DNA of 64,000 nucleotides from Minisyncoccota bacterium (GTDB lineage Bacteria > Patescibacteriota > Minisyncoccia > Phycocordibacterales > PALSA-1337): positions 233,286-297,285 of the forward strand of contig JBAYJB010000001.1 in NCBI GenBank assembly GCA_041665325.1. The letters are read 5' to 3'. Below are positions 12-58,981 of the stretch, piece after piece; the first letter of the stretch is position 1, and the number at the start of each line of letters is the position of its first letter. The position numbers and the translations under genes were made by a program. Below the pieces are notes generated by a model that had not been told where the DNA came from, searched no databases, and saw nothing but the letters and a program-made list of their open reading frames with translations.

Positions 12-857
12 ATGAATATGACATTTTTCGGCAATTCCCGCTTCTCGGTCTTCATCCTCGAAGAGCTCCTCAAGGCCGGATTGAAGCCGGCCAGGATCGT
101 CACCACGCCGGACAAGCCCGAAGGGCGCAAACTGACTATGACACCAACCCCGGTCAAGGTCTGGGCGCAGAAAAACAACATCCCCATCTATGAGCCAGTC
201 AAACTAGACGCCTCATTCATCGAGCTCCTCAAGAAAGACGATTCCGACCTCTTTATCGTGGCCTCTTACGGCAAGATCATCCCTGAAGCGATCCTGGAGA
301 TGCCCAATCACAAGACCCTGAACGTCCATCCTTCCCTGCTCCCACTGTATCGCGGCCCATCACCCCTACCGTCATCTATGCTCGACGACGCCAAGGAGAC
401 CGGCGTGACCATCATGCGCATCGACAAGGAAGTGGACCACGGCCCCGTCCTGGCCCAGAAGAAAGTCGCCATAGCCGAATGGCCGACATACGAGGAGTTC
501 GAGGAGCGTATGGCCCGCGAGGGCGGCCAGCTATTGGCCGCGACGATCCCGGAATGGGTCGCCGGCAAGCTCAAGGAGCAGGAGCAAGATCACAGCAAGG
601 CGACATTCACGAAAAAAGTAAAGAAGGAGGATGGTCTGATCATCCTCGGCGCCGACAACTACATCAATTTCCGCAAGATCCAAGCCTATCACGAATGGCC
701 ACAGGCCTATTTCTTCCGGGAAAGCGGCGGTAGGAAATTCCGCGTCAAAGTGACAAAAGCATCATACAAGGACGGCAAGCTCGGGATCGAGAGCGTCATT
801 CCGGAAGGCGGCAAAGAGATGAGCTACGAGGATTTCCTTCACGGGTACAAAAAGTAG
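12..857 (+). CDS. fmt: methionyl-tRNA formyltransferase
   Basis: Translation has the Fmt N-terminal formyltransferase fold and the motif NVHPSLLPLYRGPSPL (HPSLLP...RG). Length 281 aa is typical of compact Fmt. Confidence 0.85.
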   Translation: MNMTFFGNSRFSVFILEELLKAGLKPARIVTTPDKPEGRKLTMTPTPVKVWAQKNNIPIYEPVKLDASFIELLKKDDSDLFIVASYGKIIPEAILEMPNHKTLNVHPSLLPLYRGPSPLPSSMLDDAKETGVTIMRIDKEVDHGPVLAQKKVAIAEWPTYEEFEERMAREGGQLLAATIPEWVAGKLKEQEQDHSKATFTKKVKKEDGLIILGADNYINFRKIQAYHEWPQAYFFRESGGRKFRVKVTKASYKDGKLGIESVIPEGGKEMSYEDFLHGYKK

Positions 858-33299: not shown

Positions 33300-33377
33300 G
33301 CCCCTTATTATATCAAGTCATCTTTCATCCGCCAACTTATACAAAGAACAAGCGCCCCGTTAAGGAGCGCTTATTCA

Positions 33378-33720
33378 TGTGCGTCGCACATAAGCCGAAT
33401 TCTGTCGAGGACAACCATATATCTTGGATGCATGTTGCCATGCACCTCTAGCGGTTCTTCCCTCTGCCTTGCGGCATGGGACGCGACCTTGCACCGAGGT
33501 AAGGATTTGGCCGTTGCACCTCCCAAGTTTCCATGGGAGCTAATCCCGAAGGATCCGCGTGCCGTTTCCAGCCCGCGCGTCTCTGTTCGCACCTCTAGGA
33601 TCACCCTGACGGGCATTACCCGCTACCCTGCTATCTGGCCTTGCGGCCAGCCGGTGTTCGGACTTTCCTCACGCGAGACGCTCCTTGCGAAGGCCCGCGC
33701 GCGATTGCCTATGCGACTGA
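33378..33720 (-). ncRNA. rnpB: RNase P RNA (bacterial, reduced type A-like)
   Basis: On the minus strand the P4 5' strand GAGGAAAGUCCGAACACC is the complement of plus 33653-33670. The P4 3' strand ACAGAAUUCGGCUUAUG is the complement of 33389-33405, with perfect complementarity between them. P1 termini pair (GUCGCAUAGG with CUUAUGUGCGAC). Length is about 340 nt. Not in the ORF track. Confidence 0.7.
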
Positions 33721-37106: not shown

Positions 37107-37760
37107 TTAAACAATCCGGTTATCCCCTGTTTGCGACGGCGCGGCACTGACGGCGGCGATCCCAGCCTCCCGATCGGCTTCGGCTTCGCTCTCCGTGACC
37201 TGGACGCCGATCTTCCTCTGCAAAATGAGTCTGATATCCTCCGCGACTGCCACATCGATCGGCTCGAGGGTGATCTCTGACTCGTCGTGGCCGTCCTTGT
37301 CCTCCTCGCCGGCGGAGTCGATGGTCACTCTGGTCGTACCGGTCATCCGATGGATGAGACTGCGCTCTAGATTGATATTCTGCATCTGGCGGTACGGGAT
37401 CGAGATGATCCGGGTGCCGATGATACCGCGCTTCAACTTGAGGCCAAACTCCTCAAAGGTGAATGTGTAGTTCGTATATTCGAATCTGGCAGTAAAGATG
37501 CCTAGGATGCACACGGCCAAGCCGATGATGAAGCCCATAAGCACGATCCACTGCATGATGATCGAAGCGCCGGCCAGGGATTGGGTGCCGTTGGCTCCGC
37601 CGATCGTCATCATCCCGGCCACGAACCCGGTGAGACCGTTCTGCAAGACCAAAACGACCGCAGCGATGAGTATGATGACGAGTCCCGGCGTCAATTTGCG
37701 CGACACCATGAGCGTGTATGCTTTCTTGCCGAGATGCTGTTCTTGATTGAGGGGGATCAT
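37107..37760 (-). CDS. membrane protein with bacterial PH domain (YdbS/YdbT-like, bPH_2)
   Basis: Two or three N-terminal TM helices followed by a PH-like domain (EEFGLKLKRGIIGTRIISIPYRQMQNINLERSLIHRMTGTTRVTI). Acidic C-terminal tail. Confidence 0.55.
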   Translation of the reverse strand: MIPLNQEQHLGKKAYTLMVSRKLTPGLVIILIAAVVLVLQNGLTGFVAGMMTIGGANGTQSLAGASIIMQWIVLMGFIIGLAVCILGIFTARFEYTNYTFTFEEFGLKLKRGIIGTRIISIPYRQMQNINLERSLIHRMTGTTRVTIDSAGEEDKDGHDESEITLEPIDVAVAEDIRLILQRKIGVQVTESEAEADREAGIAAVSAAPSQTGDNRIV

Positions 37761-37787: not shown

Positions 37788-38114
37788 TCAGGCAGCTCGA
37801 TCGGTCTTCAGGCCGAAGCGATCATTGTATTCGGATAGCGCTTCGACATAAGCGTCAGCCTTCTCGATCTCGGTCCCGAGACCGAGACTTTTGTTGTTGG
37901 AAAATAGCAGGTCCGCCAGAGCATCGCCCAGCATCTTATTGAACCTGGGATCTCTCTTGGCCAAGCTCTGGCCAAGCTCGAAGAGTTGAGCTCTCTCCTC
38001 CGGAGTAGTCTCGCGGCCAAAGGTATCAGTTTTCCACCTCTCAAATTCCTGAAGCTCTGGGAGGACGCCTTCCTCGATGCTGTGGATATTCTCTGGGGAT
38101 TCTATGCTGGGCAT
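37788..38114 (-). CDS. hypothetical protein (acidic, alpha-helical)
   Basis: 108 aa with no recognisable homology, immediately downstream of the large ATPase on the same strand. Confidence 0.3.
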   Translation of the reverse strand: MPSIESPENIHSIEEGVLPELQEFERWKTDTFGRETTPEERAQLFELGQSLAKRDPRFNKMLGDALADLLFSNNKSLGLGTEIEKADAYVEALSEYNDRFGLKTDRAA

Positions 38115-38123
38115 GGTGGTTGC

Positions 38124-40883
38124 TTATTTCTGATACTTCTTCATGACTTCGGCTTCGACCTCGGCGCGCGGGCGGCCGAATGTGAGGGCGGATATCTCCT
38201 TGAGCTTGTCTGCCTGACCGGAGTCGCCCTTCTCGGGCGGCATGATCGCGATATTGAAAGGCTTGGCCGGACGGCCACCGGAAAGGAGCTTCACATAGGC
38301 GTTGAAGTTGTCCAGGTTGGTGATGTCGGTTTGCGTGAAGACTGGCGTGAATTGCTTCTCGAGATATTCGGCATCATCACTGCCGACGCGGAAGACCGCC
38401 ATCGAACCGACGTTGCCAAAGACGGCATTCTTGATCTTGTCATCGAGCTGACCGATGAACTGATGCGCCACAGTGAGCGCCAGGCGGTACTTGCGCGCTT
38501 CGGAAAGGATGGTGGAGATCGAGTCGGTGGTGATATTTTGGAACTCATCCAGATACAGGAAGAAGTCAGGCATATCCTTGCCGAATGAGTCCACGCGGGA
38601 GAGCGCGGCCATGAGGATCTTGCCGACTAGGATGAGGCCAATCAGGTGCGAGTTGATGTCGCCGAGGCGGCCCTTGGAGAGATTGACTAGCAGGATCTTC
38701 TTCTTGTCCATGATCTCGCGCATATTGAAAGACGACTGCTCTTGGGCGATGATCGGGCGCATGACCTCGTTCGAGAGGAAGACATCGAACTTCGAGGTGA
38801 TATAGGGCACGATATTGGCGAGCGAAGCTTCCCCGCCGGCCTTCTCGGCGATCTCCTTCCAGAACTGGACGACCACGGGATTCTTGCACCGGCTGATCTT
38901 GAGCTCGCGGAAAGCCTTGTTGGACATGACGCGCGAGACATCAAGGAGCGTCGAACCACTATCAGGATCTTCGATGACCAGGTTGGTGGCGTTGCGGAAA
39001 TACTGCTCGAACATCGGCCCCATGGATTCCGGCACAGCGCCGTAGAGCTTCTGGAAGATGCTGAACATCTCGTTGACCACGAAAGTCTTCTGCTCGGGAT
39101 AACGGCGGTCGAACTCGAGCATATTGAGGCCCATCGGCCGCTCGACGGATGCCGGGTCGAAATAGATGACATCCTCATAGCGCTCCGGCGGGATGCGGGC
39201 GAGGATATCGGCGACGTCGGAGCCGTGCGGATCGATGAAACACACGCCGTGGCCGTCCTCGATGTCCTGGATGATCATGTTCTTGAGGAGTGTGGTCTTG
39301 CCGGTGCCGGTCTGGCCGATGACATAGAAGTGGCGCATGCGGTCCTCCGGCGCGATGTATACCGGCACTTCGGAGCCGCGGTGGCGGTTGACACCGAGGA
39401 GTGTGCCGGCCTTGGGCAGGTCGAGTGGCAAGGGCGACGTACCGGCCTTGGACTGTTTGAGCTGCGGCGCGGCCTTGCCGACATGCGCGGCCGGGAAATG
39501 CATGGTCGTGGTCAGCTCCTCGAGATTGAGGACGATCGAATCCTTCTCATCAAAAGTACGCAAGGAGAACCTTTCCAGTAGATTTTCCAGATTATCTTTC
39601 TCTATCTTCTGCCATTCGATACGATTGCCATGGCCGTCCTCGAACTGGTTGAAGCTTGATTCGAGGTCATGAAGGATGCCGGCCGCCTCAGCCTGACTCG
39701 CGGCCGAAGCGACAATGCGGATGTCTACAGAGACAAGCGGGCTCTTGATCTTGCGCGTGAACTGTTCCACGGCAGTCTGGTCGACGGCCCCGACGCGCTT
39801 CTCCCGGTCCTCCTTGTCCTTCTTGATCTGTTCAACGCTTTTGAACATGTTGAGGACATCCTTGGTGAATCCTCCAATGAGCGACTGCCCGACTTCCTTG
39901 AGCGCCTCACCCACCTTCTCTCCCTTACGAATCTTCTCGATAGCCCTGGTCGCTTCTTTCATGTATCCGTCGCGGCGCGCGCCAATCACGAATTGGATGG
40001 CCGCACCCTCGCCCTCACGATCGATCTTGGAAAAGCTGTTCAGGATGCCGGAAAGCGGGTCGATATCAAAAGATTCGTAAGATTTGAGCGGGTAGAGGAA
40101 ATGTCTAGAGAGCCGGGCGCAAGAAGCAGCCGAGGCGCCGGCCGGGTTGAAGATATTATAGTCATCCTTGTGCTCGTGGATGTGTGCTTCCGAGAAGACG
40201 GCCAGGATCTGCTTCTCGAAGAGCTCCTTGCGCGGGGTCGGCACGGAGACATAGAAGACAAACTCGTCGCTGCCGTTCGACTTGGTGATCTCCACGGTGA
40301 ACCAGGCGGGATCCTTGGGGTCGGCGGAGACCGAAAGCATGCCGGCGTAGAATTGTTCCATGCCGGAGATGAGCGCCTTGAGCTCCTTCTGCTTGTCCTC
40401 CTCACTCGTGTCGGGCAGGCTGACCTCATAGAGCGTCATATGGAGCGGCTTCCAGAGCTCGTCGCCCTCCTTGAGACCGGAGATCGGATAGCCCGAAGAA
40501 ATAAATTGGACGAGGAAGCGGTGGAAGTCGTCTAGGAGGTGAGGATTGCCCATCTTCTCCACGACATGCATGGCATTCCTGATGCCTTTCTCCTGCATCA
40601 CGACGATCAGACCCTCGATCTGTTTGTCATGCGGCTCCGGCGAGAGCTCGAGGGTGATAGCTTCGGTCTCATGTTTAGCGATGGCGTAGTCAGGATGCAA
40701 AAGCTCGCCATGAGGGATCTTGGCGTACTGCTTCAGAGTCTCCTTGGCGACTTGCTCGCGCGTCATCTCGGCCCCGCTCTCCCGGGCACGCTCGGCGCCT
40801 TGGTCGGTGGCTTCGCGCAAGCGCGAAAGCTCTTCTTGCGGAGTCGACGCTTTTTCAACAGTCTCAAAACCGAGAGGCTTCAT
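38124..40883 (-). CDS. VirB4/TraC/HerA-like (DUF87, FtsK-HerA superfamily) P-loop ATPase with ~500-aa N-terminal domain
   Basis: 919 aa. Walker A GQTGTGKTT at aa 523-531 (nt about 39291-39317). The HerA-like motif CFIDPHGSD follows at aa 548-556. Walker B FFLYLDEFQ at aa 774-782. The N-terminal 500 aa have no recognised family. NCBI-style name: type IV secretion system DNA-binding domain-containing protein. Confidence 0.6.
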   Translation of the reverse strand: MKPLGFETVEKASTPQEELSRLREATDQGAERARESGAEMTREQVAKETLKQYAKIPHGELLHPDYAIAKHETEAITLELSPEPHDKQIEGLIVVMQEKGIRNAMHVVEKMGNPHLLDDFHRFLVQFISSGYPISGLKEGDELWKPLHMTLYEVSLPDTSEEDKQKELKALISGMEQFYAGMLSVSADPKDPAWFTVEITKSNGSDEFVFYVSVPTPRKELFEKQILAVFSEAHIHEHKDDYNIFNPAGASAASCARLSRHFLYPLKSYESFDIDPLSGILNSFSKIDREGEGAAIQFVIGARRDGYMKEATRAIEKIRKGEKVGEALKEVGQSLIGGFTKDVLNMFKSVEQIKKDKEDREKRVGAVDQTAVEQFTRKIKSPLVSVDIRIVASAASQAEAAGILHDLESSFNQFEDGHGNRIEWQKIEKDNLENLLERFSLRTFDEKDSIVLNLEELTTTMHFPAAHVGKAAPQLKQSKAGTSPLPLDLPKAGTLLGVNRHRGSEVPVYIAPEDRMRHFYVIGQTGTGKTTLLKNMIIQDIEDGHGVCFIDPHGSDVADILARIPPERYEDVIYFDPASVERPMGLNMLEFDRRYPEQKTFVVNEMFSIFQKLYGAVPESMGPMFEQYFRNATNLVIEDPDSGSTLLDVSRVMSNKAFRELKISRCKNPVVVQFWKEIAEKAGGEASLANIVPYITSKFDVFLSNEVMRPIIAQEQSSFNMREIMDKKKILLVNLSKGRLGDINSHLIGLILVGKILMAALSRVDSFGKDMPDFFLYLDEFQNITTDSISTILSEARKYRLALTVAHQFIGQLDDKIKNAVFGNVGSMAVFRVGSDDAEYLEKQFTPVFTQTDITNLDNFNAYVKLLSGGRPAKPFNIAIMPPEKGDSGQADKLKEISALTFGRPRAEVEAEVMKKYQK

Positions 40884-40988
40884 GGAGATATTATAGCAAC
40901 AAGCGAGGACTTGAGACAGCTTGCTGGTTCATAGTCCGAGCACTGTTGCTAAACGATCGAAGCGGGTATATCAGATGTCGAGCATGGC

Positions 40989-42431
40989 CTAATAACCAAG
41001 TTCCTGCGCAAGTTCGGCGAAGAGCTTGTCTTGAGCGGGATAGGCGTTCGGGGACAAGAGGACGCCATATTTCTCGGCGATCCTGACATCTCGCTCGATC
41101 GCTCCAACAAGATTATTATCAAAACGCGGGTATAGGTCTCTCAATCCCTTCTTGATAGCATCGCCAGCGGGATCGTTGTTGATGATCAGATTATCATCTA
41201 GTTTCTTCTCAAAAAGCATGGCCTGTGTCTTGGCGAATGGTACCTGACTAGTGACCCACTGCAACATCTGTCCGGCGATGGATGATTTGCGCAGGCCATC
41301 TAGATTCTCGACACCTCTCTTGAGATCGGTGCCGATATCCTCGTTGATCTCGCGGAACTCGGCATTGCCGCGCTCTGCGAACTCTTCCGCGGACACCTGA
41401 CCGACATAAGATAGGTCGCCGATGGCCACCGCTAAAGTAGACAGGCTTGATTCCGGCTTGAGATGGTTCTGATCAAAAGCGAAGACCGACACCTCCCCTT
41501 TCTCATTCGCAGGAAAATACTTCTTGAATGGCTCATCTACCTCCTTAGGATCAAAACGCAGGAATGTCACGGCAGGATGAGTAGCATCTATGGCCGCTCT
41601 GACCTCGTCGTTCATCTCCCTGGTAAATACCGCTCCGGTACGATCAACATCGCCGATCATCTGGACAGCCAGCTTAGCGCTCAATTCTTCGTTGCCGCCT
41701 CCACTAGCGGCTACTTCGGCCTTGATATTCTCCGGCAGTTTGTCGGTGTCAGCCGGACCGGCGCCGCGGTTCCTCTGGAATTTGCCGGTCTCCCTGTTAA
41801 CCACGCCGTTCACGACGCTGTCATGGAAATCAGCCGCGGCCGCGACAATACGAGATGCGTCAATGTCGACGAGGTTGGGGGCGATGGCCTGGATGGCATC
41901 TAGGATCTTGAGGGCGGCTGTTTTGACATCTTGAGCATGTTCTAGATTATGAAAAGAGCGGTCATGCCCCGCCTCGATGGCCTCCACCATATTCTCGCTC
42001 ATCTCTTCCACGGCTCTCTGACTGACTTGGTCCATGACCTTCTGCACAGCCGGGCTTTCCACGCGGTACTCCGGAACAACGATCACCTCTTCATGTCTGG
42101 AAGAATCCAGATTGGATCTCTCCCTATCAACCAGTTCGATGACTTTGGCACGGAGGCCGTGGGCTTCCGGAATCTCTTTGACAAAAAGCATGTCGCCCGC
42201 GGAATATACACGCTCGGCCGGAGATTGCCGGAGATCAGCCAAACCTGCCTCCACAATGGACTCTATTTCTTTGGCTGTATAAGTCCTTTCCGATCCCTCG
42301 ATGACCTGTTCGGCCTCGAGAACCGCAAAAAGCTCGTCAAAATCCGGAGAAGATGATATCAGGGATTCGAAATCGCTGACTTGCTGTTCGAGATCTTCGA
42401 GTTGTGGGTCTGGACCGTCTTCTAGAGACAT
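40989..42431 (-). CDS. hypothetical acidic protein with possible HD-like metal-binding motif
   Basis: 480 aa, pI clearly acidic, no TM helix. SFHNLEHAQDV (H161, H165) is followed 38 aa later by ADFHDSV (H203-D204), the spacing of HD-domain motifs I and II. This is a weak motif-only call. Confidence 0.35.
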   Translation of the reverse strand: MSLEDGPDPQLEDLEQQVSDFESLISSSPDFDELFAVLEAEQVIEGSERTYTAKEIESIVEAGLADLRQSPAERVYSAGDMLFVKEIPEAHGLRAKVIELVDRERSNLDSSRHEEVIVVPEYRVESPAVQKVMDQVSQRAVEEMSENMVEAIEAGHDRSFHNLEHAQDVKTAALKILDAIQAIAPNLVDIDASRIVAAAADFHDSVVNGVVNRETGKFQRNRGAGPADTDKLPENIKAEVAASGGGNEELSAKLAVQMIGDVDRTGAVFTREMNDEVRAAIDATHPAVTFLRFDPKEVDEPFKKYFPANEKGEVSVFAFDQNHLKPESSLSTLAVAIGDLSYVGQVSAEEFAERGNAEFREINEDIGTDLKRGVENLDGLRKSSIAGQMLQWVTSQVPFAKTQAMLFEKKLDDNLIINNDPAGDAIKKGLRDLYPRFDNNLVGAIERDVRIAEKYGVLLSPNAYPAQDKLFAELAQELGY

Positions 42432-42449
42432 GGATGTTTATTTAGACGC

Positions 42450-42794
42450 TTAGGCTGCTTGTTCGGTCTCGTCTGACTCAAGCTTCTCGCCATTTATATA
42501 CCGGCCTTCTAGAGCCTGCGCCTGTTTGCGGATCTCTGCTTCGAGATCGGGATCTGCGACAACCGCGTTGAGCGCCAACTCAACCAATTGTTCTTGCGGC
42601 ATTTTGTCGAAATACGCCTTAAGCTCGGCTCTCTCCTTCAGACGGCGGCGATCTACCTTCTCTACCGGACCAGTACGCTTCTCTGTGACGGGCTTTTCCG
42701 AGTTATTCTTGACGCCCATGGCCTCGTCCATGATATTGCCGAGATTGGTAACAACTTCCTCCGAACCCTGTGGTGACTCAAATTTGTTTGTCAT
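42450..42794 (-). CDS. hypothetical acidic protein
   Basis: 114 aa, first gene of the co-directional 42794 to 38124 unit. No homology recognised. Confidence 0.3.
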   Translation of the reverse strand: MTNKFESPQGSEEVVTNLGNIMDEAMGVKNNSEKPVTEKRTGPVEKVDRRRLKERAELKAYFDKMPQEQLVELALNAVVADPDLEAEIRKQAQALEGRYINGEKLESDETEQAA

Positions 42795-42857
42795 AGTGGA
42801 TATATCATACCATGAATTATGGTTTTATACTATAGACTGTAGTATAATTGACGAACA

Positions 42858-44039
42858 ATGGAAAAACCACCGGAAGCAGAGCTTGGGCCGGAAATACAAG
42901 GAGAAGGTGAGCCCGTCAAGAATCTCATCGAATCTTTCGATAAACTCTACTACACCCAAGGCACAGTCACTCACCGTAGCCGCTTTGCCCGAACTCCTGA
43001 AGATGCGAAGGGTAAGGAGCGACCGCTCTTTATCCGTGCGCAAAGGGCAGAACTCTACAAACAGATCCTCGCACTGCCCCACAACACCGAGCAAGAAAAA
43101 GAAAATAGTCGTGCCAAAAGGAAGGTGATCATCGAAGAGGGCCATCTGCGAGATGAAATAAATGAACAATACTTCAAACAGAGAGAAATTGCGATCAACT
43201 TGCCTCGATATGGAGAACAAAAATCTCGGGTAGTCGATATCCACCCGCCGGAAGAGTTGCAGACTCCGGAAACAGAGGCAAAACCGCCGATCTTCCTGAT
43301 CCCCGGCATATCAAATGATATCGAGTGTGTAAGCTCCTTTATCGCAGAAGTCGCATTCCAAGGCAGGCGGATCGTCACTGTCGGTTATCCGGAATCATTT
43401 ATGGGACACACGACACAGGAGTTCGCGGATGCTGTAGAGAAAGACCCAGGCTTCGCTCCACACATAGAATTCTATAAGGCAGTGATAGATAAGCTGTTCA
43501 ACAAAGGCGAACTGATCGAATTGTGGGGTTTCTCTACTGGCGCCCCCATCATCTCGGGCATCTTGAAAGATAAAAAGTATTCTCAAATGACCAAGGACGC
43601 CGCCCTGATTCTTCCCGCCGCGGTCGTCGACCAGAGCCTGAACAGTCTCAAAATGGGAGTAGTCCAAGAACTCGGATTATTGAAAGGCAATAGCACAGCA
43701 TCTTTGAACTTGACTGTTGCTTCAAAGGTGCCGAAGGAGAAAGAACAAACCAAGCTTAGGGAGGAGGTATTGGAATCACTGCTAAATAAGATTTGTGTGA
43801 ATAACAACGACTGGAGAGATGCTCGCGTCCGGGAAGGAGGAAATATAATCGTGGTCACTGGCGGCAAAGACAAGATAACAAAGGGCACAATGATGAATGA
43901 AGAATTCAAGACCGGTAATGGTCAGATGAGGGTCGTAGACATTCCAGACGCATATCATTCGACAGTGCAGATAGATCCTGAATCTGTGGTCTCGAAGCTC
44001 TTTGCGACAGAAAGAGAGATGGAGGAAAATCTCACCTGA
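42858..44039 (+). CDS. alpha/beta-hydrolase-fold protein (GxSxG esterase/lipase-like)
   Basis: 393 aa. Nucleophile elbow GFSTG in ELWGFSTGAPIISGIL, preceded by an HG-like oxyanion region (IFLIPGISND). Divergently transcribed from the ATPase operon. A TATAAT lies 16 nt upstream. Confidence 0.5.
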   Translation: MEKPPEAELGPEIQGEGEPVKNLIESFDKLYYTQGTVTHRSRFARTPEDAKGKERPLFIRAQRAELYKQILALPHNTEQEKENSRAKRKVIIEEGHLRDEINEQYFKQREIAINLPRYGEQKSRVVDIHPPEELQTPETEAKPPIFLIPGISNDIECVSSFIAEVAFQGRRIVTVGYPESFMGHTTQEFADAVEKDPGFAPHIEFYKAVIDKLFNKGELIELWGFSTGAPIISGILKDKKYSQMTKDAALILPAAVVDQSLNSLKMGVVQELGLLKGNSTASLNLTVASKVPKEKEQTKLREEVLESLLNKICVNNNDWRDARVREGGNIIVVTGGKDKITKGTMMNEEFKTGNGQMRVVDIPDAYHSTVQIDPESVVSKLFATEREMEENLT

Positions 44040-45636
44040 TCATTTCCTGCAGACGTCTCCATATCACATACATCACCTCGGTGTCGTATTTGCAGTACTC
44101 CAACATCTCGCGTCTCTTCTTTTCGGCGGCATCTCCGGTCAATTCGCCCCGCGAGATCTGCCGGTAAGCCTCTATGGCTTCGGTGCCGTTCTTGACGCCA
44201 AGCTTCTTGTAGGCGAACTCGGGGGCCAGCACTTCCTGGACCTTCTTGATCGAGGCACTGCCCCGGAAGCCGTGGTGCACATAATGCTGTTGGTCGACGA
44301 TATCCATGAGATCATATGTGCGCTTGATCACATCATGCAAGAATTCTTTTTGCGCCGGAATGAGCCGCGCCAATTCCTTGTTTCGTGAATTCTCGAATTT
44401 CTTATTCCAAGAAATGACCGTGCCCACATTGCCGATATCTTTTCTCAATCCAGCGACAATCTGTTCCGCCGGATCACCTTCGAGCACCAGACACTCGCGA
44501 TGCTCCGGCGCGGCGTCTGGCGCATTCAATATATGGAGCGAATACTGGAAGACGATGTGTTGGTAAGGACTGTAGCCGCTGAATGGCGGGATAGCCGTGG
44601 GATATGTCTCGTAATCCAGGAAGTAGAGCGGGAATTGTAGAGAATCAAGTTCTTTTTTGATCGCATCCAAATCAACTATCGGCTGTTTGGTCTTGTGAAC
44701 GCGCACTTGATTGAGCTTACGCGGCTTGGTCTGCTTCTCGTTTGCCTTGGCTGGCTTCGGATGTAATCTGTCATCTTCCGGCACTTGGTCTATCTCCAAG
44801 ATCCCTTCGTCGAGAAGTTCCTTGAGATATTTCTTGCTGTTCCCAATGCGGTTCAGGTCATGGACGCTGTACGCCGGCACCTGCGGGTTGCTCAAGGTGA
44901 ATGAAGTGCAATGCGACGAGCGGCCCTTGTAGTAGCACTCACAAGGACCAACGGGCATTTTATCTTGAGATAAATATGAGAGCGCGCCCTCCATCTCAGA
45001 AAGGATCGCGGATAGACGATCCTCATAAAGTTCCTCTGTCTTATCCGTGAGTTTGAATAGCTTGCTGTAGTCTAGATCACCCACGCGCACATAATCCCTA
45101 TTTAATCGCACCAAATACTTCTTATTAAAATTCACACCGCACAACTTGGCAACATTTACCTGAAAAGCTAAGTCATACTCAAATTGTTCCTCCTTCTTCT
45201 TGTTTATTTTCTTAGGCTTACCAGATTCGTCTTCCTCCTCTTCGTCGGTCGAAGACATCTTGATCTCATAGACATCGTAAGCGTTCGCTTCGGTGTTCCA
45301 TACGATCACGTCAGCAGCAGCCAAGAATCTGTCAGTGCTGAAAACCGGCTGGAAGATGACGGGATGTCTCTCCTTGATGAGTTTCTCCGTCAGTTCCTGG
45401 GCACCTTCGCTCCTCTTCTCGACTAGATAGCCCCCCGGGAACATCCCGCGCGCCATTTCTTCGACTTCATTTCCCATGACGCCAAGCGACTTCTCGAATT
45501 CGGACACCTCAAACTTGCGGTACTCCTCCGGCAGATGCCACTTGTTCCAGACATTCCTGGCGCAGTCGCGGTAAAGGATGAAATCGGTCTTGGTGAGGAG
45601 TTTCATGAGACTTATATTAACACCAATGTATTGCAA
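44032..45636 (-). CDS. Cas4/RecB-like PD-(D/E)XK nuclease fused to DUF2779 (RNase H-like) domain
   Basis: 534 aa. An N-terminal Cys (YRDC) plus the C-terminal cluster CECYYKGRSSHC (CxC-x7-C) suggest a Cas4-type Fe-S nuclease. FPLYFLDYETYPTAIPPFSGYSPYQHIVFQYSLH is the hallmark motif of the DUF2779 family. Confidence 0.5.
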   Translation of the reverse strand: MQYIGVNISLMKLLTKTDFILYRDCARNVWNKWHLPEEYRKFEVSEFEKSLGVMGNEVEEMARGMFPGGYLVEKRSEGAQELTEKLIKERHPVIFQPVFSTDRFLAAADVIVWNTEANAYDVYEIKMSSTDEEEEDESGKPKKINKKKEEQFEYDLAFQVNVAKLCGVNFNKKYLVRLNRDYVRVGDLDYSKLFKLTDKTEELYEDRLSAILSEMEGALSYLSQDKMPVGPCECYYKGRSSHCTSFTLSNPQVPAYSVHDLNRIGNSKKYLKELLDEGILEIDQVPEDDRLHPKPAKANEKQTKPRKLNQVRVHKTKQPIVDLDAIKKELDSLQFPLYFLDYETYPTAIPPFSGYSPYQHIVFQYSLHILNAPDAAPEHRECLVLEGDPAEQIVAGLRKDIGNVGTVISWNKKFENSRNKELARLIPAQKEFLHDVIKRTYDLMDIVDQQHYVHHGFRGSASIKKVQEVLAPEFAYKKLGVKNGTEAIEAYRQISRGELTGDAAEKKRREMLEYCKYDTEVMYVIWRRLQEMIR

Positions 45637-45770
45637 TCGCTTAACTCTAGATATAGTATATTAATAGATTTCAATCTTGGGCGAAGCACCCCGTGTCATG
45701 GTCCCATGATGATTGGCTTGTTGCGGAATCATCACGCAACGAGAGTACCAGCGGCAAGTGCCACCCCCTC

Positions 45771-45810
45771 GGCCTGCACAGCTTTAAGCTTGTGCAGGCC
45801 CTTCGTTTAT
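45771..45810 (+). terminator. strong hairpin + T-tract (orphan, plus-strand orientation)
   Basis: GGCCTGCACAGCTTTAAGCTTGTGCAGGCC (13-bp stem with one bulge) followed by CTTCGTTTAT. No plus-strand CDS lies upstream. It sits between the nuclease gene start and tRNA-Ser. Confidence 0.35.
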
Positions 45811-45826
45811 AGAACATTAATTTTAT

Positions 45827-45916
45827 TGGCGGAGGGTAGGAGATTCGAACTCCTGATACCCGTTAGGGTATGCCACCTTTCCAAGGTGGTGCACTAGACC
45901 GCTATGCGAACCCTCC
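45827..45916 (-). tRNA. tRNA-Ser (anticodon GGA), type II, CCA encoded
   Basis: Reverse complement GGAGGGTTCGCATAGCGGTCTAGTGCACCACCTTGGAAAGGTGGCATACCCTAACGGGTATCAGGAGTTCGAATCTCCTACCCTCCGCCA. Anticodon loop TTGGAAA and a long variable arm. Confidence 0.8.
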
Positions 45917-55583: not shown

Positions 55584-57608
55584 ATGGATACATCACCACA
55601 GCCGAACAGCTCTGCCCCCAAGAAACCTTTTTCGCACTCGCATAATAGGGATGGCCACCGCCAGCATCAACAGGCGCGCACTAGGATATTGAGGAATGAT
55701 ACCCGCCCACCAGTTGCCGGTGGAGCGATAGCAGGCAACCGGCCGGCCAATCCAGCTCCGGCTCCGTACCAGGGCCATCATCGTATCGTACTCGGCCGAG
55801 GCGCCCGCAAAGTAGCCGGCGTCGGCCACATCGCCGGCGCGCGCATGTCGATCGTCAGGAAAGCCGGCAAGATGGGTCGGAAGGGCCCTTCCAAGCCACC
55901 CGGTCCGAATCGTGCCGGCGACATCATCCCACCTCTCTCCGACGGCGCGATTCGCATCGTGCCGCTAGGCGGCGTCGAGGAAGTCGGCCGCAACATGACC
56001 GCTATCGAATACAAGAACGAGATCATCATCGTGGACATGGGCTTCCAATTCAAGGAGGAAGGCACCCCGGGCATCGACTACATCCTGCCAAATACCAAAT
56101 ATCTCGAGGAACGCCGCGAGAAGATCAAGGGCGTCTTCATCACTCACGGCCACCTGGACCATATCGGCGGTATCCCCTACATCATGCCGAGGATCGGCAA
56201 TCCCCCCATGTATTCGAGACAATTCGGCGCCATCATGATCATGAAGCGTCAGACGGAATTCCCGCATGTCCCGCCGATCAACATGAAAGTTCTCGACAAG
56301 AATGAGACCATCACCATAAGCCCCCACTGGAAAGTCGAGACTTTCGCTATCTCCCACACCATTCCCGACGCCATGGGCCTGATCATCCATACCGGTGTCG
56401 GCGATATAGTCTTCATCGAGGATGTGCGCGTAGACAATGTGAAGGGTGTGCCGACCGAGGAAGAAGAGCGCCAGTATGCCCGCTTCAAGGGCAAGAAGGC
56501 TCTCCTCCTGACCATGGACTCGACATCGATCGAGAAGCACGGCTTCTCCCTGTCGGAGAGCACTGTGACCGAGAACATCGAGAAGCTCATCAGAGCGGCG
56601 GGTGGACGCATCATCATCGGCACCTTCGCCTCACAGGTGGAGCGCATCATCAATATCATCAAGATCGCCGAGCGCTACAACAAGAAGATCGCCATCGAAG
56701 GCCGTAGCATGAAGACGAACATCGAGATCATCAAGACCTTGAAGCTCGCCGAGATCACCAATATCATCCCGATCGAAGAGATCGAGAATCACGCTCCGGA
56801 CAGGATCATCATGCTCGTGACCGGCGCCCAGGGCGAGGAATTCGCCGCGCTCGGCCGTATCGCCAACAAGACCCACAAGTTCATCAAGCTCCGCCCGACT
56901 GACACAATCATCCTCTCCTCGTCGATCATCCCGACCAACCACAACGCCGTGATCAAGCTCAAAGACAACCTCTACAGGAGCGATGCCAAGGTCATCACCT
57001 ATCTCGACTCCGATATCCACGCTTCAGGGCACGGCAACCGTGACGAGCTCAAATGGATCCATGAGCATGTCGACTACAAATTCTTCATGCCGGTACACGG
57101 CCACCACTACATGCTCCGCCAGCACGCCGAGCTGGCCCTGTCCCTCGGCGCGCCTCGAGAGAATGTGGTCATCCCCGACAACGGCTCGATCATCGAGATC
57201 GACCCGACCGGAGACAAGATCACAGTGCGCAAAGAGAAGGCACCTTCTGGCCTCGTCCTCGTGGACGGCTTCTCCGTCGGCGATGTCCAGGATGTGGTCA
57301 TCCGCGACCGCCAGATGCTCGCCCAGGACGGCATCTTCATCATCTTCGGCATCATCAATGCCACCACCGGCAAGCTCAAGAAGTCACCCGACATCATCTC
57401 CCGCGGCTTCGTCTATCTGCGCGAATCACAGGAGCTCTTGCACGGCGTGCGCCTCCTCATCAAAGACACCATCGAAGGATCCACCCGCGGCATGAATCCG
57501 ATCAACCTCGACCTAGTCAAAGACAACGTCACTGACGCCGTATCCAAGTTCCTCCTCCAAGAGACCGCCAAAAGGCCGATGGTCATCCCCGTTATATTGA
57601 CGATCTAA
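55584..57608 (+). CDS. rnj: ribonuclease J (metallo-beta-lactamase/beta-CASP) with ~125-aa low-complexity N-terminal extension
   Basis: MBL HxHxDH motif (ITHGHLDHIGG), beta-CASP and C-terminal domain. The conserved core begins about IRIVPLGGVEEVG (aa about 127). The first 125 aa are Pro/Gly/Arg/His-rich. The true start may be internal, for example MSIVRK at about 55845. Confidence 0.8.
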   Translation: MDTSPQPNSSAPKKPFSHSHNRDGHRQHQQARTRILRNDTRPPVAGGAIAGNRPANPAPAPYQGHHRIVLGRGARKVAGVGHIAGARMSIVRKAGKMGRKGPSKPPGPNRAGDIIPPLSDGAIRIVPLGGVEEVGRNMTAIEYKNEIIIVDMGFQFKEEGTPGIDYILPNTKYLEERREKIKGVFITHGHLDHIGGIPYIMPRIGNPPMYSRQFGAIMIMKRQTEFPHVPPINMKVLDKNETITISPHWKVETFAISHTIPDAMGLIIHTGVGDIVFIEDVRVDNVKGVPTEEEERQYARFKGKKALLLTMDSTSIEKHGFSLSESTVTENIEKLIRAAGGRIIIGTFASQVERIINIIKIAERYNKKIAIEGRSMKTNIEIIKTLKLAEITNIIPIEEIENHAPDRIIMLVTGAQGEEFAALGRIANKTHKFIKLRPTDTIILSSSIIPTNHNAVIKLKDNLYRSDAKVITYLDSDIHASGHGNRDELKWIHEHVDYKFFMPVHGHHYMLRQHAELALSLGAPRENVVIPDNGSIIEIDPTGDKITVRKEKAPSGLVLVDGFSVGDVQDVVIRDRQMLAQDGIFIIFGIINATTGKLKKSPDIISRGFVYLRESQELLHGVRLLIKDTIEGSTRGMNPINLDLVKDNVTDAVSKFLLQETAKRPMVIPVILTI

Positions 57609-58981
57609 TACCCTTGCGTGAGATCGATCTGGGATTGTATAGAATTGGTACCGCTATACGCCATCGACAGGATATTGTTGGCGTAGCCGGTAGCGCCTGT
57701 CACTCTGCCGCAAGCCTGACCTGAATAATAGCGGCAAGCGGCATTCTTCTGGGCATTGGTCGAGACACCGTTTGCACTCGTACCGCCCAGGTCAGACAAG
57801 TACATGGCTGAAGCCATGAAGGCATCCAGGGGCTTCCAAGGATTTGCTACTGATACTCCTACGGCTGCTGCTATCCTGTCCTTGAGGAGCATCCAAGTCG
57901 AAGGGATGAATTGAGCCGGACCCATAGCGCCTCCGTAGCCGATCGATTGCGGACATGAGACTACGGTCGTCTTGTAGTCATAACCGAGAGATTTAGTGAT
58001 AGCCAGGAATGGCTGGACATCGCGGCTAGCCTTCATGACATTGGGGACAGCGGCATTAGTCTCGGTATTCACGCCAGAACCCACCGAAGTGTTGGTCAGA
58101 TAGCAGGTGCCGACATTACCACCGATGTTGGTCTCTTGCTTGAGAAGGGCCAGGAGGAATGCCGGCTGAACGCCGGTCTTTTGATATACGATACGGGCAT
58201 AGTTGAGCGCTTCACCGAAAGGTATGGCCTTGGATCCAGCCAGCGGGAAGAGCGCTGCCAAAACCTTGCTAGCTTGAGCAGCCTTCTGGGCCGCCAGAGA
58301 GGCGTAAGCCTTCTTGTTCTGCTCGCTGATATTGAGGAGGGCTTGGAGTTCCTTTTGATTGGTTTCGACCTTCTTCTGCTGTTCCTGGATCTCATAACGG
58401 GCATCTACCTCTGTATTGCGTCGTTTGTCGAGGGTATCCTTCTCTGCTTCAGTTTCGGCTTGATCTGAACGGAGCTTCTCGAAAAGGGTCTTTAGACTTT
58501 CCTGGACAGCCTGGAAAGTATCCACGTCATTGAAGAAACTAGAGATAGAGCTTTGAGACAAGAGCACCTCGGCCAGAGAAGCGGCCTCGAACTCATTGGT
58601 CTTACGCAAGAGCTGGGATAGTGTTTGGCGATTCTTGGCGATGTGCTCCTCGAGATCCTCTATGTGAGCCTGTTTGACCTGGATATCGTTGCCCAAAGTC
58701 TGGATCAGGAGTGTTTTAGCTTGGATGTCGAGCTGGGCTGCCTTGATCTTGGCGCGCAGAAGAGCGATATCCCGCTCATAGGAAGAGCTTTTGAGCTGTT
58801 GGGCAGCGGCGGCGGCTTCGGCCTCCTTGCGCTCTGCTTCCAGACGATTATATTCGATCTGGCATTGAGCCTTCTCCTGCGGAGTATCACACTTGATGGA
58901 TTGAGCATGCGCCGAACCAGGCACCACGATGGTCGCGGCAAACAAAAAAGCCCATGGTAGAACCTTGATCGTCGGCTTCAT
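57605..58981 (-). CDS. secreted coiled-coil protein with C-terminal lytic transglycosylase (SLT/MltB-like) domain
   Basis: Signal peptide, about 220 aa of heptad-repeat coiled coil, then a C-terminal domain with QETNIGGNVG and AMGPAQFIPSTW (compare G-x-MQF-PSTW of the MltB/SLT family). Confidence 0.55.
   Translation of the reverse strand: MKPTIKVLPWAFLFAATIVVPGSAHAQSIKCDTPQEKAQCQIEYNRLEAERKEAEAAAAAQQLKSSSYERDIALLRAKIKAAQLDIQAKTLLIQTLGNDIQVKQAHIEDLEEHIAKNRQTLSQLLRKTNEFEAASLAEVLLSQSSISSFFNDVDTFQAVQESLKTLFEKLRSDQAETEAEKDTLDKRRNTEVDARYEIQEQQKKVETNQKELQALLNISEQNKKAYASLAAQKAAQASKVLAALFPLAGSKAIPFGEALNYARIVYQKTGVQPAFLLALLKQETNIGGNVGTCYLTNTSVGSGVNTETNAAVPNVMKASRDVQPFLAITKSLGYDYKTTVVSCPQSIGYGGAMGPAQFIPSTWMLLKDRIAAAVGVSVANPWKPLDAFMASAMYLSDLGGTSANGVSTNAQKNAACRYYSGQACGRVTGATGYANNILSMAYSGTNSIQSQIDLTQGY

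Follow-up and report, generated by a model that had tools for sequence, protein, structure and literature searches.

A group of co-directional genes lies in a 64,000 nucleotide (nt) window of chromosomal DNA from a Candidatus Paceibacterota metagenome-assembled genome (contig JBAYJB010000001.1). Coordinates below refer to this window unless another contig is named. Three genes, all on the minus strand, encode an acidic 114 amino acid (aa) orphan protein (42450–42794), an acidic 480-aa protein with two domains (40989–42431) and a 919-aa ATPase (38124–40883). The first two are separated by 18 nt; a gap of 105 nt divides the 480-aa gene from the ATPase gene. An initial annotation of this DNA listed five open reading frames (ORFs). 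All five, and both gaps, were recovered at the same positions. The two remaining ORFs encode a 393-aa orphan (42858–44039, plus strand) and a 534-aa DUF2779 protein (44032–45636, minus strand). The initial annotation also proposed that the three minus-strand genes form a defence or DNA-translocation module. This did not hold, since the neighbours fail to co-occur with the ATPase in related genomes.

Conservation of the neighbourhood was assessed in 81 ATPase loci by phmmer, hidden Markov model (HMM) searches of neighbouring genes and ORF clustering. We retrieved 80 species-representative loci with the ATPase, at 53–77% identity and with up to 10 kb on each side. The 81 loci are from other species and leave out the sister-strain loci L003 and L004. 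By tblastn, phmmer and an HMM of the 480-aa family, none of the 81 has a relative of the 480-, 114-, 393- or 108-aa protein, or of the DUF2779 protein, in the 10 kb around the ATPase. We also inspected relatives of the 480-aa protein on seven contigs, five of which were informative. Their contexts are unrelated housekeeping regions: ParA/ParB/TopA/DprA, pyruvate kinase with Mur ligases, GyrB/PheS, and ApbE with a cytidylyltransferase-like gene (CTP_transf_like). Only one of the five, L088, carries a gene resembling a type IV coupling protein (T4CP). This gene is 5.3 kb downstream of the 480-family member P0122 and not adjacent to it. It (8753–9440 of L088) encodes 589 aa with DUF87, T4SS-DNA_transf and TrwB_AAD_bind matches; DUF8128, the family of the window ATPase, is not on record for it. 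The gene may be a second patescibacterial T4CP paralogue, and its proximity to P0122 is possibly a coincidence.

Homologues of the ATPase are abundant. A word-indexed search returned more than 3,589, and the best 120 of these are 59–100% identical, full length and from Paceibacteria-type lineages. At least 574 relatives were confirmed among pattern matches in a collection of species-representative genomes. De novo clustering of neighbouring ORFs identified nucleoside-diphosphate kinase (Ndk) immediately downstream of the ATPase in 31 loci. Methionine aminopeptidase (Map), adenylate kinase (Adk), SecY, L15, S5 and L18 recur upstream on the same strand. Hence, many Paceibacteria have the ATPase gene at the tail of the spc ribosomal operon. 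An RNase J-like protein and IF-3 are further recurrent neighbours. Closer relatives, with about 70% ATPase identity, have the block LemA-TPM-tRNA-Ser ... ATPase ... DUF192-RNR, where RNR is ribonucleotide reductase. Synteny with bPH_2, DUF192 and class II RNR genes is common to the closest relatives (the P0004 contig and L006). All identified recurrent neighbour clusters are housekeeping, and none is a relaxase or a component of a type IV secretion system (T4SS). We conclude that the ATPase gene is a vertically inherited, class-wide core gene of Paceibacteria, and not a mobile or defence gene.

These observations can be set against a survey of patescibacterial secretion genes by Quinonero-Coronel et al. 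2025 (PMC12102498). There, the true patescibacterial virB4 clade is found near dnaA/dnaN, with TrsD, VirB3, VirB6 and VirB2. The same survey, which covers 3,035 genomes, lists 5,713 VirD4-type homologues in 2,918 of these; just 148 of the homologues are near virB4. It leaves exaptation of the t4cp gene as a possibility. According to one transposon sequencing study, as cited there, VirD4-like genes are non-essential. Judging from its profile matches and its position apart from T4SS genes, the window ATPase appears to fit this dispersed VirD4-type set. As a separate observation, 10 other Paceibacteria loci (for example L009 5411–6941, L007 6679–8239 and L044 8313–9587) encode a protein of about 420 aa directly adjacent to the ATPase, on one side or the other. 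In L007 and L009 it is followed by a protein of about 95 aa, and the cluster to which this small protein belongs occurs in eight loci. Pfam gave no meaningful match to either the 420-aa or the 95-aa neighbour.

The genes upstream of the ATPase behave differently. They occupy a slot with a conserved outer border, tRNA-Ser(GGA) (45827–45916, minus strand), identified by ARAGORN and Rfam. L003, L010, L011 and L058 have this tRNA at the same slot border. In the window, the slot holds the DUF2779 nuclease-like gene, the 393-aa orphan, the 114-aa orphan and the 480-aa gene. We compared positions 42794–45830 with 4978–9806 of L003, and with L004. Both are contigs of the same species, with 98% nt identity in the flanks. 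The 393-aa gene is absent from both and is a strain-specific insertion in the window. Conversely, two genes are confined to L003 and L004. One is a DUF3644 gene; the other, positioned between the ATPase and the 480-aa gene, encodes a 108-aa protein that differs from the one in the window. The DUF2779 gene is a divergent allele, with 85% nt identity between the window and the sister strains. Synonymous divergence of the 114-aa gene is 0.19, compared with 0.04 in its neighbours. From the ATPase −10 box onwards, identity is again 98%, which places the ATPase on the conserved side of the junction. Taken together, the differences in gene presence and the divergence of the DUF2779 and 114-aa genes point to a putative recombination hot spot adjoining tRNA-Ser(GGA).

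Slot contents also vary among relatives whose ATPase is about 70% identical. L011 has one orphan gene, and L010 has the same gene with a Laminin_G_3 surface protein. The slot of L058 holds seven genes; these include an Xre-type helix-turn-helix gene (HTH_3) and a gene for a 584-aa AAA_15/AAA_21 (OLD/AbiEii-like) ATPase (2634–5527 of L058), and this pair is possible defence cargo. Base composition at 42–46 kb of the window is 0.49–0.50 G+C (0.49 in the region of the 393-aa gene), against about 0.55. Neither flanking repeats nor an integrase were found at the slot. We conclude that the 114-aa and 480-aa genes are cargo of a strain-variable slot.

The initial annotation ended a single transcription unit at position 38124. 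This needs revision. Downstream of the ATPase, on the same strand, a gene for an acidic 108-aa orphan (37788–38114) follows after 9 nt. After a further 27 nt comes a gene for a 217-aa bPH_2 membrane protein (37107–37760; Pfam E 1e-12, with hydrophobic segments). Upstream, reading the 105-nt gap and comparing loci revealed a TATAAT −10 box (40890–40895, minus strand) that ends 6 nt before the ATPase ATG. We compared 79 homologous ATPase loci. A perfect TATAAT is present upstream of the ATG in 51, with its end mostly 6–9 nt from the start codon; in a further 19 a single mismatch is seen. The box often has an upstream TG (TG-n-TATAAT) and is present regardless of the upstream gene. Such close geometry between −10 box and ATG is rare in the window; it recurs at a tetratricopeptide repeat gene (start 33299), the 393-aa gene (42858) and an SLT gene (58981), and approximately at RNase R. 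A scan for consensus promoters and terminators gave counts not above shuffled expectation. Because the conserved −10 box lies just before the ATG, the ATPase gene heads its own transcription unit. By this geometry, its transcript is probably leaderless or near-leaderless. The 114-aa gene is probably co-transcribed with the 480-aa gene, as a unit separate from the ATPase.

In summary of the locus, the trio is not a conserved module because none of the 81 loci retains it, the 480-family contexts are unrelated, the ATPase is a core gene with its own promoter and the remaining genes occupy a strain-variable slot. We are fairly confident that the locus is a juxtaposition and not a system: a core motor ATPase stands beside a slot that happens to hold an independent phosphodiesterase-like enzyme of 480 aa.

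The ATPase has the motifs recognised at the outset: Walker A GQTGTGKTT at residue 523, CFIDPHGSD at 548 and Walker B LYLDEFQ at 776. The homologue alignment shows almost no variation at the Walker residues. These motifs fall in a P-loop NTPase domain (residues ~490–870; 38274–39416, minus strand). Pfam matches to this protein exceed the cut-offs for T4SS-DNA_transf (PF02534; 31.4 bits against 20.1), DUF87 (33.0 against 23.2) and TrwB_AAD_bind (PF10412; 27.5 against 20.5). TraG-D_C is just under (21.8 against 22). Among NCBIfam models, TraD and VirD4-like models score best, all far under their cut-offs. Profiles for VirB4, HerA and FtsK match solely around the P-loop. A PDB sequence search placed TrwB top. 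Judged by these matches, the P-loop domain is closest to the type IV coupling proteins VirD4/TraD/TrwB. No transmembrane segment was found: across residues 1–740 no 19-residue window exceeds 1.6 on the Kyte-Doolittle scale, and the single marginal hydrophobic window (743–747) is inside the ATPase fold.

The first ~500 residues had been described as matching nothing. However, a precomputed annotation assigns Pfam DUF8128 (PF26449) to an identical protein (P0001) and to the best 120 of the more than 3,589 homologues. No papers on DUF8128 or PF26449 turned up in our literature search. We modelled residues 1–495 with AlphaFold2 (AF2; pLDDT 78, pTM 0.71, a model of moderate quality). All 14 Foldseek matches at E ≤ 1e-3 are chains of TrwK. 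The region appears to have two parts. Residues ~149–460 (39504–40439, minus strand) are an alpha/beta domain with a VirB4 N-terminal-domain-like fold, equivalent to the DUF8128 core. Residues 1–145 (40449–40883, minus strand) are a Patescibacteria-specific extension, helical in the AF2 model. Invariant in it are PExHD and NPHLxDDFHRF (L80-x-P82-E83-x-H85-D86; H115 ... D119-x-x-R122). Hence, the original description of the ATPase as VirB4-like was apt, both for its N-terminal fold and for its VirB4/T4CP-type P-loop domain. The models and alignments indicate that the protein combines a VirB4 architecture with a coupling-protein-like motor domain and an extension of about 145 residues.

Type IV secretion systems have VirB4 as their signature ATPase, an example being TrwK of plasmid R388. 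The window ATPase shares the N-terminal fold of VirB4 but is not a member of the family by sequence. The match to TIGR00929 is 14.4 bits against a cut-off of 643, and is confined to the P-loop; there is no CagE_TrbE_VirB match. Moreover, the ATPase has the extra 145-residue helical extension, and its gene is not accompanied by those for VirB3, VirB6, VirB8 or pilin. Its location also differs from that of the bona fide patescibacterial VirB4 clade, near dnaA/dnaN (PMC12102498).

Resemblance to the coupling proteins VirD4, TraD, TraG and TrwB is closest in the P-loop domain, which passes the Pfam cut-offs and has TrwB as best PDB match. Canonical coupling proteins have an N-terminal membrane anchor. 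The window ATPase has no such transmembrane anchor, and instead has a soluble region of about 490 residues with a VirB4-like fold. It lacks linkage to a relaxase or T4SS, and the NCBIfam T4CP models score far under their cut-offs. The T4CP homologues of Quinonero-Coronel et al. 2025 (PMC12102498) are, like the window ATPase, dispersed away from virB4.

Distant full-length relatives, with 20–27% identity that includes the DUF8128 core, occur in Bacillus and Geobacillus phages and in plasmids. The phage relatives comprise PHROG 5156 (E 1e-90, residues 149–916), SPP1 gene 32 and phage G gp156. Plasmid relatives are from Bacillus, Streptomyces, haloarchaea and Sulfolobus. Phage and plasmid homologues align only from residue ~143–150 onwards, and so lack the helical extension. 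SPP1 gp32 and its relatives (PHROG 5156) are 20–24% identical over about 75–82% of the ATPase, including the DUF8128 core. Previous work describes gp32 as soluble, with a C-terminus resembling TrwB, VirB4 and FtsK (PMC6316719). It differs in being the basic product of a phage early gene, whereas the window ATPase is acidic (pI 5.6), and gp32 relatives have no counterpart of the first ~145 residues.

We then considered the 480-aa protein. As first noted, it is soluble and acidic (pI 4.5, no hydrophobic segment). Compared with the sister strain, its gene has 14 synonymous and 4 non-synonymous differences, a ratio of non-synonymous to synonymous polymorphism (pN/pS) of about 0.08. The 114-aa gene also has 14 synonymous and 4 non-synonymous differences (pN/pS ~0.08), and the N-terminus of the ATPase has an equal ratio. 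Hence, the 114-aa and 480-aa ORFs are real coding genes. The 480-aa protein has no match in Pfam, NCBIfam or PADLOC, and only a weak one in PHROGs (phrog_7407, E 7e-4). A word-indexed search with the single sequence returned itself only and, with a profile, itself and P0195. Exhaustive HMMER searches found 209 relatives at E ≤ 1e-3, with 24–39% identity. Most are 350–430 aa and align to residues ~135–480. A separate, short set aligns to residues 1–~110. None of the relatives was found on annotated phages or plasmids.

This distribution matches a division into two domains. The N-terminal module (residues ~1–112; 42096–42431, minus strand) is helical. It also occurs as a stand-alone unit in the small proteins P0147, P0166, P0179, P0184 and P0185 (BLASTP E 1e-19 to 1e-25, 37–44% identity), and P0147 has two tandem copies. 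The remainder (residues ~127–480; 40992–42053, minus strand) is a class I phosphodiesterase-like domain of the HD superfamily, containing FHNLEHAQDV at 160–169, HD at 203–204 and D339. Motifs in the family alignment are FHNxxHxxDV ... HD ... R.RG ... GNE..SA ... TYP ... GDL ... GN.EFRE. Across the 43 relatives compared, no substitution occurs at H161, H165, H203, D204, D339, R220, N247, E248, T284, E358 or E361.

The initial annotation had likened the His and HD spacing of this protein to HD phosphohydrolases, and further comparison substantiated the likeness. With the family profile, class I phosphodiesterases (PDEs) are the top PDB sequences, each weakly (E 0.014 and up). PDE8A, PDE7A and RhoPDE align exactly on FHNxxHxxDV...HD. 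The structure model has a pLDDT of 92, and its fold matches PDEs and generic HD proteins. Weak Pfam HD matches occur in 2 of 48 relatives (best E 0.0076). Pfam PDEase_I (PF00233) does not match the 480-aa protein and is absent from the 25 families listed for the 48 relatives. On the strength of the model, we assign the protein to the HD-superfamily phosphohydrolases, with a class I phosphodiesterase fold and a full set of predicted metal ligands.

To our knowledge, class I phosphodiesterases are regarded as eukaryotic, and a literature search for bacterial examples gave nothing useful. The 480-aa protein shares the catalytic-domain fold of this class (PDE1–11, RhoPDE). It differs in having no PDEase_I match, in lacking the second His of HDxxHxG and in its extra N-terminal module. 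Unlike eukaryotic class I PDEs, the family is found in contigs with bacterial housekeeping contexts. SidE of Legionella has a PDE domain that acts on ADP-ribosylated ubiquitin, within a multidomain effector. Its structural score to the 480-aa protein is lower than that of eukaryotic PDEs, and the 480-aa protein has neither a mono-ADP-ribosyltransferase (mART) nor a deubiquitinase (DUB) domain.

By analogy with its relatives, the ATPase is most likely an ATP-driven translocation or assembly motor. It would form a ring, either a hexamer or a trimer of dimers, and burn ATP to move or load DNA or protein. The VirB4-like N-terminal domain would dock onto a membrane partner encoded elsewhere. This partner could be the T4SS-like apparatus of Patescibacteria or, after exaptation, another translocon or machine. 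The 480-aa protein would be a binuclear-metal phosphodiesterase in which H165, H203, D204 and D339 bind the metals and H161 probably serves as general acid. Given its fold and invariant residues, it would most likely hydrolyse a nucleotide phosphodiester, independently of the ATPase.

Several points weigh against a juxtaposition of these two proteins, or against the roles assigned to them. The 114-aa, 480-aa and ATPase genes are co-directional and closely spaced in this species. We found no terminator-like site on the minus strand between the 480-aa gene and the ATPase; hence, transcripts may read through from one into the other. P0122, the closest 480-family member, is encoded on L088 at 5.3 kb from a T4CP-like gene; by rough estimate, chance would produce this only a few per cent of the time. 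No relatives of the 114-aa protein were found in four family libraries or the 81 loci, searches that did not extend to an exhaustive homology search. The N-terminal model of the ATPase is of moderate quality (pLDDT 78) and its Foldseek TM-scores to TrwK are low (~0.3). gp32 of phage SPP1, to which the ATPase is related, is uncharacterised, and the phage does not require it (PMC6316719). For the 480-aa protein, phosphodiesterase-like activity is predicted from fold and residues only. The PROSITE signature of class I PDEs is HD[LIVMFY]xHx[AG]xxNx. The second His of this HDxxHxG pattern is absent from the window protein (HDSVVNGVVN) and likewise from the family consensus.

Some of these points would suit a trio that works together in this lineage: the T4CP-like ATPase would recognise the acidic 480-aa phosphodiesterase and hand it to a secretion channel, with the 114-aa protein as chaperone or adaptor. 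There is a parallel in the SidE-family phosphodiesterase effectors of Legionella, which are delivered through the Dot/Icm coupling complex. Adjacency, shared orientation and close spacing of the genes fit such an arrangement, as does the T4CP-like gene 5.3 kb from the closest 480-family member in L088. Patescibacteria also depend on hosts, and repurposing of their T4SS has been proposed (PMC12102498). However, no 480- or 114-family gene is near the ATPase in any of the 81 loci, and four of the five informative 480-family contexts have no such ATPase. Furthermore, a promoter of its own precedes the ATPase, whose conservation does not depend on the upstream gene, and the 114/480 pair is in a strain-variable slot. 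We consider an effector unit improbable.

Still less probable is an anti-phage system that pairs a HerA/FtsK-type ATPase with an effector (HerA-Sir2, HerA-DUF4297 or MADS-like), here the phosphodiesterase or the DUF2779 nuclease. PADLOC does match the ATPase, with mad8 at E 2e-14 and HerA at about 1e-5, a DUF2779 nuclease-like gene is nearby and the tRNA-Ser slot of L058 has defence-like cargo (HTH_3 with AAA_15/AAA_21). However, the PADLOC matches are confined to residues 486–864, the P-loop domain, and no partner gene of those systems is present. No other protein of the locus matches PADLOC, save DUF2779 against RT_VI at E 0.025. In other loci the candidate effectors are not found alongside the ATPase. 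The ATPase itself is class-wide, highly conserved and found in ribosomal-operon or housekeeping synteny, the opposite of patchy defence genes. We therefore rejected a defence system. We also rejected, as comparably remote, a remnant of an integrative conjugative or mobilisable element at tRNA-Ser, with the ATPase as its coupling protein. Such a remnant would account for the nearby tRNA, the lower G+C at 42–46 kb and the T4CP-type signatures of the ATPase, and distant full-length relatives are indeed carried by Bacillus, Streptomyces and archaeal plasmids and Bacillus phages. However, no integrase, relaxase, VirB4, VirB6 or pilin gene was found among the scanned window ORFs, in a scan that did not use T4SS-specific profiles (CONJScan), and a search for flanking repeats was negative. 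The junction separates the differing island content from the ATPase, which belongs to the conserved side, with 98% identity again from the −10 box. Its position relative to LemA-TPM-tRNA-Ser and DUF192-RNR is kept in relatives that are about 70% identical.

Within the juxtaposition that we favour, a broader proposal can be made, tentatively. DUF8128 ATPases might be a third, soluble lineage of the VirB4/T4CP group, combining a VirB4-type N-terminal domain with a coupling-protein-like motor. In Paceibacteria, this lineage could have been exapted as a housekeeping machine apart from conjugation and secretion; signs in favour are the placement of the gene at the tail of the spc operon and its conserved leaderless-type promoter. 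Candidate roles would be, for example, DNA uptake, chromosome handling or the assembly of membrane complexes. Separately, the 480-aa family would be a genuine prokaryotic branch of the class I PDE fold. We regard this proposal as possible but doubtful.

The proposed novel system is not real, which removes an apparent discovery. There remain two objects that are well defined, though uncharacterised: the DUF8128 ATPase family and the phosphodiesterase-like family. The former is already known to databases and now has a clearer structural and genomic definition, as well as a link to uncharacterised phage proteins such as SPP1 gp32. Patescibacteria account for a large share of bacterial diversity, are host-dependent and, in nearly all genomes, have dispersed VirD4-like ATPase genes. 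A bulk count of such genes can thus be replaced with a defined target for genetic and structural studies, having a VirB4-like N-terminal domain, no anchor, housekeeping synteny and its own promoter. The class I phosphodiesterase-like family, with about 200 detectable relatives and no Pfam model, is undescribed. It is relevant to the origin of eukaryotic cyclic-nucleotide phosphodiesterases, and to nucleotide signalling or salvage in reduced genomes.

Other genes of the locus are less well defined. The 114-aa protein (pI 4.8) is seen only within the same species and is 96.5% identical in L003/L004; its pattern of substitutions indicates purifying selection. No similarity links the 114-aa protein to either of the two distinct 108-aa proteins or to the module at the N-terminus of the 480-aa protein, nor any of these to one another. 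The 393-aa protein has the GxSxG motif assigned to it in the initial annotation (GFSTG at residue 224). It has no match in Pfam, NCBIfam, PADLOC or PHROGs, and its best PDB hydrolase sequence match is at E 2.3; the alpha/beta-hydrolase label, based on the GFSTG motif, is putative. In the 534-aa protein, the DUF2779 domain was confirmed (Pfam E 3e-38). By eye, its N-terminal half has Cys25, Cys232/234/243 and D108...E123-x-K125, a Cas4-like pattern; profile and PDB searches gave no support for a nuclease in this half.

The remaining genes of the window are housekeeping, and include RNase R, DnaE, ThrRS, LepA, MurJ, class II RNR, GroEL and RNase J. Its RNA genes are RNase P RNA and six tRNAs. 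The RNase P RNA is of class A (33376–33720, minus strand; 102 bits against a gathering score of 100) and lies directly 3' of the class II ribonucleotide reductase gene. A 458-aa protein (57605–58981, minus strand) has a weak SLT_2 lytic transglycosylase domain, and its gene has a leaderless-type −10 box. It is the sole gene of the window possibly tied to cell-wall remodelling for a secretion apparatus.

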